From positions 1 to 34,871 of IMG/VR virus record IMGVR_UViG_3300030330_003718: DNA of 34,871 nucleotides; one strand, given 5' to 3'. The notes below the pieces were generated by a model, which saw nothing but the letters and a program-made list of their open reading frames with translations, was not told the DNA's origin and did no database searches. This document shows positions 4,881 to 10,859 of this stretch, piece after piece (position 1 is the first letter of the stretch; the number at the start of each line of letters is the position of its first letter). The DNA comes from a virus. Its lineage: Duplodnaviria; Caudoviricetes. The translations under genes were made by a program, and so were the position numbers.

Positions 4881-5282
4881 ATGGGTCTTAATAGGCAACA
4901 AATTCTGGGCAACTTGGGACGAGATCCCGAGGTGCGCCATACCAACAGCGGCACTGCAGTTGCCACGCTGAGGATCGGAGCATCCACCAGAGAGAAGGTG
5001 GACGGCGAATGGACTAGCGTCACCGAATGGTTCGACTGCGTGGTCTGGGGCAATCAGGCAGAGATCGCCGGAAAGCACTTGTCGAAAGGCGAGCAGGTGT
5101 ACATCGAAGGACGCACCAAGACGCGTCAGTACACCGACAAGGAAGGACAGGAGCGATACAAGACCGAGGTGCAGGTGGATCGCATGGAGTTTGCTGGTGG
5201 CAGTCGAAGCCAAAGTAACAACAATAAGCGCTCGCAATACGGCGAGCAACATTACGACCGAGGAGGGAACGTACCGTTTTGA
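4881..5282 (+). CDS. ssb: Single-stranded DNA-binding protein
   Basis: ILGNLGRDPEVR, TEWFDCVVWG, KGEQVYIEGR and RYKTEV motifs; ends in PF. Confidence 0.95.
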   Translation: MGLNRQQILGNLGRDPEVRHTNSGTAVATLRIGASTREKVDGEWTSVTEWFDCVVWGNQAEIAGKHLSKGEQVYIEGRTKTRQYTDKEGQERYKTEVQVDRMEFAGGSRSQSNNNKRSQYGEQHYDRGGNVPF

Positions 5283-7595: not shown

Positions 7596-7970
7596 TCATT
7601 TCCTGCGAGCATCGAGCGCGGCGTAGTGCTGGCGCATCTCGCTGAGCCCTGTTTCGACAGAAGCCCCTACCTTTTCGATCTTCTCGTTCACGTCATGCAG
7701 ACCCTGCACGGTATTGTCGAGGTTGTTGGTGACTCCCTGCAGTAACGTATCACGCTCCTGGTTGTACCTACTGACGACATCGTCATACCTGGTTCGTATG
7801 TCTTCTTCTTTCTTGTCGCAGCGGTCCTGCATCTCGCGCACCTGGTCCTGAAAAGACTGCACCATAATCTCGCGCTTCTGCGTTTCCTTGATGTACAGCC
7901 AAGCAACGAAAGCCGCCGATATACCCAGCGGTCCATAAGACTCGATAATGTTAACCCACGCTGGGTCCAT
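7596..7970 (-). CDS. Membrane protein with N-terminal TM helix and coiled coil (holin or i-spanin-like candidate)
   Basis: YGPLGISAAFVAWLYI hydrophobic segment followed by ~95 aa of predicted coiled coil. Confidence 0.65.
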   Translation of the reverse strand: MDPAWVNIIESYGPLGISAAFVAWLYIKETQKREIMVQSFQDQVREMQDRCDKKEEDIRTRYDDVVSRYNQERDTLLQGVTNNLDNTVQGLHDVNEKIEKVGASVETGLSEMRQHYAALDARRK

Positions 7971-8269: not shown

Positions 8270-8430
8270 CAACGGCCTACTTTCTTCATGGCAGCTTTGT
8301 GCGCTGCCGTAAAAGTCTTACCAGAGAGCATCATTTTTTTCATTTCGCTCATATGTTTTTTTGTATGATGCGGAGCATGTCTTTTCAATGCGCTCTTTTG
8401 ACGCGCTGTTAACTGTTTTCTTTTTACCAA
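8269..8430 (-). CDS. 53-aa basic His/Met-rich protein (not in ORF track)
   Basis: TTG start after GGAGGT; MVKRKQLTARQKSALKRHAPHHTKKHMSEMKKMMLSGKTFTAAHKAAMKKVGR. Confidence 0.75.
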   Translation of the reverse strand: MVKRKQLTARQKSALKRHAPHHTKKHMSEMKKMMLSGKTFTAAHKAAMKKVGR

Positions 8431-8431
8431 A

Positions 8432-8665
8432 TCACCACCTCCACTTTAAACCTGCCGTTGCTTGCCAGTCTGCTTCTTGTCCCCATTCACCTGTTGCCAA
8501 TAGTCCCGCCGTAAGATCAAGCTTCTCATCAAGTCTGTGACGCATATCAGCAGCAGCACTCCACCTATCAGTGTTCCCACCGAGAGAAAGATCAAGGCCC
8601 CCGGATTCATCGTCCGCTAAACCTAGGATTTTGGCTGGTCGGATGAGGGGGCCGGGGAGTTTCCC
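8432..8665 (-). CDS. -1 frameshift extension of the holin-like gene: 77 codons, four beta-strands, YadA-anchor-like
   Basis: Open frame ...LPGPLIRPAKILGLADDESGGLDLSLGGNTDRWSAAADMRHRLDEKLDLTAGLLATGEWGQEADWQATAGLKWRW* has no start codon before ATG 8545 and is entered via G_GGA_AAC. Confidence 0.65.
   Translation of the reverse strand, partial: GKLPGPLIRPAKILGLADDESGGLDLSLGGNTDRWSAAADMRHRLDEKLDLTAGLLATGEWGQEADWQATAGLKWRW
8596..8665 (-). promoter_or_regulatory. Programmed -1 ribosomal frameshift signal (slippery heptamer plus stem-loop)
   Basis: GGGAAAC at 8665-8659 is in X_XXY_YYZ phase. After a 5-nt spacer, GGCCCCC (8653-8647) pairs with GGGGGCC (8602-8596), with inner TCATC/GATGA. Confidence 0.65.
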
Positions 8666-8862
8666 GATGCAGCCTCTACCGCAGCACGCTTCTGCTTCGC
8701 CACGTCTTCGAGGGAGATGCCCATCACACCGGCCACAGCGCCCAAGGAAGAAGCGATGATCGCCTCGGTAGGCAAGCTGGGAAAGAAGTGCTTAGCCAGG
8801 ATCGGCAGAACAGCAGCCAGAATGCTGAGCCACAGTTTGCGTGATTTCATCTTGTCGGACAT
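8623..8862 (-). CDS. Holin-like membrane protein, 79 aa
   Basis: KSRKLWLSILAAV start resembles SRKFW-type phage holins. Two hydrophobic segments, charged C-tail, AGGAG RBS. Confidence 0.7.
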   Translation of the reverse strand: MSDKMKSRKLWLSILAAVLPILAKHFFPSLPTEAIIASSLGAVAGVMGISLEDVAKQKRAAVEAASGNSPAPSSDQPKS

Positions 8863-8880
8863 GACAGCTCCTTGGGTTTA

Positions 8881-9782: not shown

Positions 9783-10480
9783 GTGTGAACCGCCTTGCCC
9801 GCATAATAGTTACGGGCAACCTCATCGAATGACAGAGCCTTATTGTAAAGTCTTACATTGTTACATTTGCCATTAACGATCTGGCCACCATTATTACCAG
9901 AAGGGGGATACCAAGCACTACAAATAAAGCAGCCGTAATCACCGGCCAATGGCGCTGTATATGGGCCGCCTCCATCTGGATGCCCATTAAGATAAACAAT
10001 ACACATCCCTGATGTTGAGTCGGCAGACATAACTAGATGGTTCCACGACCCAGTTGTAATAGCGGTAGCCCCATAAACATTTACAGAGGCGGTACTCGTT
10101 GAGTTCCTTACTCGTGCCCATAACTGGTCTGATCCATTGTCCACAAGCAAGCTAATGGCGTCTTGAAATGTAGCATTCGACATAAAGATTACACGATCAC
10201 CAGCCGTAATAGCATCAAAATTAACCCACGCTTCAAGAGTATAGTCGGTCATGTCTTCTGTGATGGGTTTACTATTAAGGGTTCCGGTATGACCAAAGTC
10301 GCCAACGCCATCAAAGTCAGGCCAATCCCCTGCCGTCATCGCCAAGGTTGCGTCGTACGCTGCCTTGGGTGCGATATTGTACCATTTATTATTGGCGCTA
10401 TCCGCACTCAAAACTTCGTACCGAAGCACACCATTAGATGTAACCGGCGTACCACGCTTTAAACTTCTGCGCCTAGCCAT
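9779..10480 (-). CDS. LamG/concanavalin A-like lectin domain protein (likely tail or receptor binding)
   Basis: FDGVGD, YTLEAWVNF, GSWNHLV, VYLNG and NVRLYNKALSFDEV motifs. Start moved to ATG 10480. Confidence 0.85.
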   Translation of the reverse strand: MARRRSLKRGTPVTSNGVLRYEVLSADSANNKWYNIAPKAAYDATLAMTAGDWPDFDGVGDFGHTGTLNSKPITEDMTDYTLEAWVNFDAITAGDRVIFMSNATFQDAISLLVDNGSDQLWARVRNSTSTASVNVYGATAITTGSWNHLVMSADSTSGMCIVYLNGHPDGGGPYTAPLAGDYGCFICSAWYPPSGNNGGQIVNGKCNNVRLYNKALSFDEVARNYYAGKAVHT

Positions 10481-10859
10481 TCCAACGAGCCTTCCCAGGA
10501 CGGATGTCATAATGCACAAATGTATTATACAATCCAAGTCCACCAGGCGGAATATGCTTACTATCTACAAGCGATTCAATAACTTCATGCAGTTCTTCTG
10601 TTGAGCAACCCAGTGGTTTGAGATCGGCAGCAATGCCACTGAGGTGCTGGGAGTTCTTCGCACCCCCCACGCTTTCGTTGTGCTCTTGGCACCTGTAAGC
10701 AGAGTTGATCTTAAGGGGTACTCCAGCTGCGTTTCTAATCTTTTGCAACGCCCAGGCAAGATGGCGGGTGGCGTAAGCATTAGGTGGAGCACCAAGGCAT
10801 TTGCCGCACTTGCAGTAGAACTCGTTCGGTTTGAAGTTAGGTGGGTATCCAGCACTCAT
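10473..10859 (-). CDS. Peptidase M15A Zn peptidase (probable endolysin)
   Basis: EFYCKC, INSAYRC..HN..VGG, SQHLSGIAAD and FVHYDIR (H-x6-D...H). Confidence 0.9.
   Translation of the reverse strand: MSAGYPPNFKPNEFYCKCGKCLGAPPNAYATRHLAWALQKIRNAAGVPLKINSAYRCQEHNESVGGAKNSQHLSGIAADLKPLGCSTEELHEVIESLVDSKHIPPGGLGLYNTFVHYDIRPGKARWNG

Follow-up and report, generated by a model that had tools for sequence, protein, structure and literature searches.

Between positions 8432 and 8862 of the virus record IMGVR_UViG_3300030330_003718 (Duplodnaviria; Caudoviricetes), on the minus strand, lies a 431-base locus that is conserved in dozens of relatives of this uncultured marine phage and that, judging from sequence comparison, likely encodes three membrane proteins in three registers. 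The window, i.e., the whole stretch of DNA analysed, is a linear record of 34,871 bases with an estimated completeness of 93%, about 7% of the genome being missing. Product A is a short, holin-like protein of 79 amino acids (aa); product B is a predicted 143-aa long form, which would arise by a -1 frameshift near the end of the gene for A and would carry a four-stranded beta module; product C is the putative product of a nested open reading frame (ORF) of 54 aa. A preliminary description of this DNA had proposed the first two products; its inventory was incomplete, as the nested ORF at 8610-8446 had been overlooked. The window genes described below are on the minus strand.

The gene for A occupies 8623-8862 and is preceded by a ribosome-binding site, AAGGAG (8868-8873), 5 nt before its ATG. 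Codons 67-68 contain the heptamer G_GGA_AAC (8659-8665) in X_XXY_YYZ phase, the predicted -1 site. The -1 frame (8432-8665) stays open for 77 codons, up to the TGA at 8434-8432; its first ATG, GTG or TTG codon is the ATG at 8545, and the next ORF begins at 8430, one base past its stop. The heptamer, the 77-codon frame and ATG 8545 had been given in the preliminary description and are confirmed here.

The locus was compared across two overlapping sets of relatives. Set 1 comprises 44 viral loci found with the 79-aa protein plus the window (45 in all), and set 2 the best 80 of 96 metagenome loci matching the -1 peptide, 78 of which were informative; when seven further loci are added, the merged collection counts 129 loci with 87 distinct sequences. 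As these loci are kin, locus counts such as those for the upstream element and its GAG codon given below are not independent. An in-phase XXXYYYZ heptamer was present in 45/45 set-1 loci, 7-10 codons past a fixed anchor, and it was followed by a complete -1 frame of 73-80 codons in 44 of them, the remaining one ending at a contig edge. All 78 informative set-2 loci have the heptamer together with the upstream two-helix gene, and an in-phase heptamer also occurs in loci L178, L181 and L185. By comparison, such heptamers were found at 26 of 7887 codon positions (0.33%) in 15 window genes, a background of ~4.5% per 14-codon window. Among the 87 distinct sequences the site is GGGAAAG in 35, AAAAAAG in 18, CCCTTTG in 11, GGGAAAA in 9, GGGAAAC in 8 and AAACCCC in 3, with three singles. 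These sites fall into five hexamer classes, among which a FastTree tree with 85 rows requires 13 changes; the tree was built from few columns, and its well-supported branches force fewer than 13. The letters of the heptamer vary while its pattern is constant, a signature of selection on slippage. In L111 (1366-1375) and L141, a 0-frame stop codon directly follows G_GGA_AAG, a shift-or-stop arrangement.

The -1 frame has no conserved start codon. Upstream of the first beta-strand, 83 of the 87 distinct sequences contain no ATG and 64 contain no ATG, GTG or TTG. The preliminary description had raised three possible objections to a programmed shift, namely homologues lacking the heptamer, an independent start at ATG 8545 and an indel joining the frames. 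The homologues keep the heptamer, one lineage excepted. ATG 8545 is kept in only 2/45 loci and is removed by substitution in contigs of runs X3 and X5, and an independent start there was rejected. An assembly indel was rejected as well: contigs of runs X1 and X2 (possibly the source of the window) read through the site identically and ungapped, two X5 contigs that differ by 4 and 20 substitutions show no gap there either, and an indel is therefore unlikely. A full-length in-frame fusion of A and B was absent from the 129 loci and from three protein searches, which suggests that the short form, or a low ratio, is needed. Taken together, these computational comparisons make it highly probable that the frameshift is real.

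The locus is widespread in marine metagenomes: at E<=0.001 we retrieved 267 homologous protein clusters for product A. The beta frame is largely invisible in databases because gene callers record it only as truncated pieces. The window sequence itself is present in marine metagenome runs, the two best-matching of which may be its own source, and none of the listed runs carrying it is an RNA run. A search of 50,697 phage records with the capsid protein and with products A and B gave no match and thus no cultured relative, and the sole hit among the species genomes searched (L186) was rejected as a chance match inside another gene.

The sequence AGAGG at 8673-8677, 7 nt before the slippery site, resembles a Shine-Dalgarno (SD) sequence and is likely the 5' stimulator. 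GGAGG or GAGG occurs 7, 10, 13 or 16 nt before the site in 82 of 88 loci, GAAGG in two and neither in four. The Glu codon carrying the element is GAG in 81/84 cases, versus 76/170 for the other Glu codons of the same genes. The preliminary description had noted this element at 8677-8673 and called it weak; it is present as described, and it is the conserved one. The stem-loop proposed there, 5 nt past the heptamer (8596-8653), does form in the window (-25.2 kcal/mol), with a borderline z of -1.86 and 13 of 200 shuffles folding as well, but it is not conserved. Over 21 lineages the 3' region folded no better than shuffles (z -2.38 to +1.40), RNAalifold found no consensus pair in 28 sequences, and a 3' hairpin was on these grounds rejected as a family-wide stimulator. 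The conserved stimulator is thus likely the upstream SD-like GAGG and not a 3' hairpin. Upstream SD-like stimulators are known from bacterial -1 signals, in which a 3' structure is not always present (PMC4066793). In the lineage with A_AAC_CCY sites (L011, at 5208-5250, L012 and L013) a long G+C hairpin directly follows the site, with differing loops; it may compensate for a weak slippery site.

The -1 extension encodes a linker and four amphipathic beta-strands. AlphaFold2, run on the window extension with an alignment of 38 homologues, placed strands at residues 20-30, 34-45, 49-60 and 66-75 with a mean predicted local distance difference test (pLDDT) score of 86; for the distant member L163 it gave a helix plus four strands (pLDDT 81). 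Across an alignment of 85 homologues, every other position is almost entirely apolar and Trp stands at strand ends, while the opposite, inward face carries the conserved charged residues D25, R42, D50, K74 and R76. The extension ends (8435-8458) in a beta-signal of the type that BAM (beta-barrel assembly machinery) reads, polar-x-G-x-x-hydrophobic-x-aromatic, with the consensus as in PMC10945584. The full motif was found in 75/85 homologues, G at -6 and the terminal aromatic residue in 85/85, and the last strand is the most conserved part of the extension. The four amphipathic strands and terminal signal of the preliminary description are thereby supported.

Its comparison with a YadA-like anchor held in part. 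The predicted fold is a four-strand meander, and with either model Foldseek placed the anchors of Hia, AtaA and YadA highest, at non-significant E values of 0.016-0.26 (best 0.016 and 0.026). All VIA-align scores were below Z 8. AtaA came first for one model (Z 6.4, root-mean-square deviation (rmsd) 3.0, 62 aligned residues), both it and Hia (Z 5.7, rmsd 3.3, 57 aligned) were level with unrelated sheets, and for the other model gasdermin/MACPF pores came first (Z 6.5-7.0). The YadA_anchor family PF03895 had no match in the window, the 38 homologues or the divergent members, nor at E<=10 in the six-frame genome; the Pfam profile search of the window gave no head or stalk passenger family, and a sequence search of the PDB gave nothing below E 2.6. 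The predicted strands and beta-signal therefore give the extension the look of a small outer-membrane-type barrel subunit, its likeness to the YadA anchors being structural and non-significant. It is likely that the extension is a membrane sheet handled by BAM, and from the conserved signal it follows that the sheet comes into contact with the outer membrane at some stage. Two singleton database proteins, P0003 (91 aa) and P0149 (106 aa), join helix 1 of product A to the sheet and have no helix 2. They come from contigs of 550 and 830 nt, so that a deletion or a misassembly may account for them; for P0003, a full-length match of high identity was found in no viral locus.

ORF C (8446-8610) lies in the +1 frame of the beta extension; it shares its frame with gene A, past the stop of the latter, and starts with ATG in the window. 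Its predicted product has one strongly hydrophobic segment and a polar tail. The best 19-residue hydropathy of C is 2.7 in the window (median 2.6), which exceeds that obtained by synonymous recoding of the beta frame (p<0.05 in 85/87 loci with genome codon usage). The same level was reached in 21/22 lineages when the ORF's own codons were permuted and in 16/22 with the T-rich usage of the capsid gene, and 0/108 control windows in other genes reached a hydropathy of 2.5. At four-fold sites the share of T in third position is 0.50-0.54 in the part coding for strands 1-2, compared with 0.13-0.14 for strands 3-4. Among 88 loci C starts with TTG in 51, ATG in 25 and GTG in 11, and has no start in one. 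The divergent clade has either ATG or GTG at a single position that follows an SD-like motif, whereas translation is less certain in the largest clade because the start there is TTG without a clear SD. Extra stops precede the hydrophobic segment in 14 of the 88 loci, in 13 of which an ATG follows; stop-codon readthrough was for this reason rejected as a general route to C, the other 74 loci being compatible with it. The tail of C is basic in the window and Pro-rich and acidic in the largest clade, and its nearest family match is a weak PHROG of unknown function (E 0.0009). We consider with good confidence, slightly below that for the frameshift, that C is a genuine gene.

Product A has two moderately hydrophobic helices followed by a polar tail. 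Helix 1 spans residues 10-26 (8785-8835; Kyte-Doolittle (KD) 17-mer average 1.76) and helix 2, rich in Gly, Ala and Ser, residues 35-51 (8710-8760; 1.95). Helix 2 is marginal in 6/7 lineages of the divergent clade (KD 17-mer 0.97-1.43) and reaches 1.9-2.4 in the main clade. The protein has the anatomy of class II holins: it is small, with two hydrophobic helices, a charge pattern predicting both termini inside (N-in/C-in) and a charged tail. Leads to holin families came from phrog_9987, matched by the homologue L111 and not by the window protein (E 0.0019, weak), and from the ESM Atlas, whose named neighbours of A were holin-family clusters (0.81-0.83), taken as leads only. In 22/22 lineages there are 2-4 Lys/Arg before helix 1 and none in the net-negative loop, and the 15 residues after helix 2 contain three (two in one lineage). 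The positive-inside rule would place both termini of such a protein in the cytoplasm. Helix 1 is separated from strand 1 by 58-76 residues and helix 2 by 34-54.

A Peptidase M15 endolysin is encoded at 10473-10859, 1.6 kb upstream of the cassette (PF08291, E 6e-23; phrog_894 endolysin, E 3e-32). It showed no hydrophobic export segment, not being among the ORFs with a 19-mer KD of at least 1.5. An M15 endolysin lies in the flank of 50/94 locus rows, some of which repeat a contig and many of which have short flanks; in 12 rows of the divergent clade it stands directly past the beta stop, and the cassette is there also preceded by a gene for a helix plus coiled coil. Products A, B and C have no lipobox Cys, the signal of outer-membrane lipoproteins. 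A relaxed six-frame lipoprotein scan, which recovers lambda Rz1 and T7 18.7 as positive controls, gave eight hits in the 93%-complete window and none was a plausible gene: seven were on the plus strand (five antisense to late genes and two in the left-end repeat) and one was out of frame in the capsid gene. The same scan gave five hits in the complete relative G305. The earlier remark that the window has no canonical Rz/Rz1 pair agrees with this result.

We tentatively favour the reading that this is a three-product lysis locus whose long form B attacks the outer membrane. Its observed basis is the slippery site, the SD-like stimulator, the open -1 frame without a conserved start and the nested ORF under selection. 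A minority of ribosomes would shift -1, so that the 143-aa form is made at a fixed ratio to abundant A. The extension is predicted to be a transmembrane beta-meander that is recognised by BAM and oligomerises, perhaps as a 12-strand trimer. The two helices would insert N-in/C-in with the sheet first held in the cytoplasm, which is the weakest step. The sheet would gain the outer membrane only after opening of the holin lesion and removal of the wall by the endolysin; as an alternative access, the marginal helix 2 could slip out of the membrane. Such delayed access would time the attack on the outer membrane to lysis, and it is the simplest way to reconcile a cytoplasmic start with a BAM signal. 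B would in that case link the two membranes and contribute, in place of a spanin, to breaking the outer one, and C might, speculatively, tune or trigger the lesion. That the locus moreover stands for a new class of outer-membrane disruptor, composed of a holin, a frameshift-rationed holin-barrel fusion that uses BAM and a nested partner, with topology and not the wall gating the attack because the barrel module stays harmless in the cytoplasm until the lesion exposes it, is a doubtful though possible extension of this reading.

If true, phages without classical spanins would gain a new way to break the host outer membrane, and an outer-membrane barrel would stand in for the o-spanin, a possibility that the survey PMC6139136 only proposed. 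Programmed frameshifting in tailed phages, a matter of tail and capsid genes, would also come to include a gene for a membrane or lysis protein. The locus provides a small, clonable candidate for the way in which spanin-less phages cross the outer membrane.

Several observations weigh against the favoured reading. Products A, B and C had no Pfam, PHROG or NCBIfam match at threshold, and the window protein A matched no curated holin family in these searches; its identity as a holin is drawn from its anatomy, the PHROG hit of one homologue and the Atlas neighbours, which are weak leads. The charges predict that both ends of A, and hence the start of the extension, face the cytoplasm. The beta sheet would begin in the cytoplasm because these charges give an N-in/C-in hairpin in 22/22 lineages, and therefore a plain spanin-like bridge made at synthesis, which the preliminary description had suggested, is not the natural reading, while its caveat that the beta domain might be cytoplasmic was strengthened. 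The 58-76 residues between helix 1 and strand 1 are short for crossing the periplasm, and no cleavable signal peptide was evident by eye. Gasdermin, MACPF and pilin folds score like the trimeric autotransporter adhesin (TAA) anchors, all below significance. In 18/94 rows the portal gene closely follows the cassette, which itself often comes after the capsid gene. Four genomes were checked, three with this layout and one with another; the endolysin lies 14-15 kb from the cassette in three of the four, and in the fourth (55% complete) no endolysin was found. The beta module is present in one copy in each. Lastly, one lineage (L081-L083) keeps both frames and has no in-phase heptamer. In these loci a C-rich run lies in the overlap (~1690-1730), where a non-canonical shift site is possible.

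Some of these points lend themselves to other explanations. B could be exported, with helix 1 as a signal anchor and helix 2 passing through, and form a small outer-membrane barrel that, without being a lysis factor, remodels the surface of the infected cell, e.g., as a superinfection block like that of lambda Lom. The beta-signal and amphipathic strands agree with this, as do the loose linkage to the endolysin, an ESM Atlas neighbour, a cyanophage outer-membrane protein (OMP) family (PF24653; score 0.94, 135 shared features), and the frequency of phage-encoded outer-membrane barrels, among them Lom, for which receptor blocking is reported (bioRxiv 10.64898/2026.10.24.761521). The singletons P0003 and P0149, which join helix 1 directly to the sheet, also agree with it, but their short contigs may reflect deletion or misassembly. 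PF24653 had no match in the genome, the endolysin adjoins the cassette in the divergent clade, and fixed-ratio coupling to a holin-like gene would serve no clear purpose; we regard a surface barrel as unlikely. The N-in/C-in charges fit a sheet that stays on the cytoplasmic side and enters the inner membrane as a gasdermin-like beta-pore, seeding or widening the holin lesion. The inward charges D25, R42, D50, K74 and R76 would suit an open pore, and gasdermin/MACPF folds head one of the two VIA lists, although scores below 8 may reflect a mere common sheet. The G at -6 and the terminal aromatic residue, kept in all 85 homologues, are features of BAM recognition that would be superfluous for a self-inserting pore, and the strands, at 10-12 residues, are as long as those of outer-membrane barrels; we consider this explanation quite unlikely. 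The products could instead be virion or ejection proteins that build an envelope channel at infection. The 18/94 rows in which the cassette is flanked by the genes for capsid and portal, or closely precedes the latter, agree with this, as do the P22-like portal of the window and its 2402-aa gene, which would be typical of podovirus-like ejection proteins. Two-helix or single-pass membrane proteins are unusual in lipid-free capsids, however, the cassette changes position along with the small basic genes, and A has holin leads; a virion role appears improbable.

Less probable still is that the extension, released into the periplasm, jams BamA by mimicry of the beta-signal and weakens the outer membrane without forming a barrel of its own. 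Protein antibiotics that inhibit BAM in this way exist (bioRxiv 10.64898/2026.09.25.754295), and the last strand is the most conserved part of the extension. The lipid-facing pattern is nevertheless kept in all four strands, more than a decoy requires, and BAM inhibition would be slow for lysis. The smallest chance of all is given to the absence of a ribosomal shift, the beta frame being a separate gene with a rare start codon, a product of transcriptional slippage or an assembly error. The lineage without a canonical heptamer is compatible with this, and so is the L163-like clade, in which an in-frame ATG is frequent ~9 codons past the site and is taken, like codons next to it, as the start by gene callers. 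Against it stand the 64/87 sequences without any start before strand 1, the sparse retention of ATG 8545 (two of the 45 loci) with its loss by substitution in X3 and X5, and the gap-free contigs of X1, X2 and X5. GGGAAAC and CCCTTTG contain no long homopolymer run, and a separately started sheet would have no export signal.

Besides the endolysin, Pfam and PHROG identified in the window a terminase, a P22-like portal and a major capsid protein. The 2402-aa gene (18064-10856) had no convincing Pfam or PHROG match; its product is probably internal to the virion or ejected. The record begins at its left end (~1-120) with a short tandem repeat that translates as repeated VPRVLLC; it is possibly part of a terminal repeat or packaging region. 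At 30137-29970 a small hydrophobic ORF (50-70 aa in the window and relatives) directly follows the capsid gene, and likewise in L014, L031, L039 and L081.

The position of the cassette varies among the relatives, and small basic genes move along with it. Downstream of the cassette, in the window (8430-7308) as in the majority of related loci, comes a variable series of short genes whose products are very rich in Lys and Arg (39-92 aa; phrog_7595, 16028 and 31838), and their cationic peptides could also act on the outer membrane. Within this region a 124-aa protein (7596-7970), with an N-terminal apolar segment and a coiled coil, is a possible second lysis factor; it had a tblastn match in 7/94 locus rows. 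An Rz1-like lipoprotein nested in its gene (ORF 7936-7688) was considered and rejected, the frame being broken or altered in the five homologues listed. Genes for an apolar segment plus coiled coil also lie near or directly before the cassette in L171 (675-1010), L163, L164, L173 and L181. The charges of these proteins suggest an N-out/C-in orientation and possibly a second holin-like factor.

A description of this design was not found in the literature searched, most subscription papers lying outside the search. In the sections available, neither PMC12819732 nor PMC13704836 describes it, and the word holin is absent from the examined portion of the frameshift review PMC5009743. A survey of barrels in huge phages reports 6-22 strands and an N-terminal signal peptide, with no mention of frameshifts, holins or spanins in the excerpt concerned (10.64898/2026.10.24.761521). 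Lom and the cyanophage OMP family (IPR056410/PF24653) are similar in that an incomplete barrel is completed by oligomerisation (6 strands x 2 for IPR056410). Those phage barrels differ from the predicted product B, which has four strands, is a frameshift fusion to a membrane hairpin and has no PF24653 match.

The heptamer G_GGA_AAG is the shift site of lambda G/GT and the commonest site in the present family. In both cases the -1 shift lies near the 3' end of a short gene and gives, here by prediction, a C-terminally extended minor form, the ratio being 30:1 in lambda (PMC5009743). Unlike the lambda tail chaperone, the protein extended here belongs to the membrane and has two helices, and what is added is a membrane-type beta-sheet in whose frame a third gene is nested; Pfam and PHROG identified neither a tape-measure nor a major-tail gene in the window. 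The signals of dnaX and IS911 share with ours the X_XXZ_ZZN heptamer and the upstream SD-like stimulator (PMC4066793), whereas their gene context is different and the present family also tolerates C_CCU_UUG and A_AAC_CCY.

The anchors of TAAs (type Vc: YadA, Hia and AtaA; as defined in 10.64898/2026.01.22.700529) resemble the extension in their C-terminal four-strand meander with terminal beta-signal, here predicted, in the preceding helix, present here in the divergent clade, and in their top Foldseek ranks. They differ in that the present module has no PF03895 match, shows neither an evident cleavable signal peptide nor a passenger of the head or stalk kind, and is the predicted frameshift product of a phage membrane gene. 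The conserved charged residues on its inward face are a further difference, the lumens of TAAs being lined mostly by small residues.

Product C may be compared with Lcc6 of LambdaSo and the Mu releasin, which are small, cross the inner membrane once and are required in addition to holin and endolysin (bioRxiv 10.1101/2024.01.23.576932). The analogy is one of description and not of sequence, and Lcc6, unlike C, is encoded away from the lysis genes and is not nested.

The functional comparison is with the spanins. Described spanins all use an outer-membrane lipoprotein, and in two-component systems one gene may be embedded in the +1 frame of the other (PMC6139136). Kongari et al. (2018) considered that an outer-membrane protein could in principle act as o-spanin, and no recognisable spanin was present in 91 of 677 (~13%) surveyed phages of Gram-negative hosts (PMC6139136). 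Like lambda Rz/Rz1 and T1 gp11, the present system combines an inner-membrane helix with a predicted outer-membrane attachment in a small late locus near the endolysin. In contrast to them, no lipoprotein was found, the outer anchor would be a beta-barrel, and the nesting is inverted, with a helical membrane protein inside an outer-membrane-type frame. By family the locus could be placed with neither the spanins nor the YadA anchors, while its function may be spanin-like.

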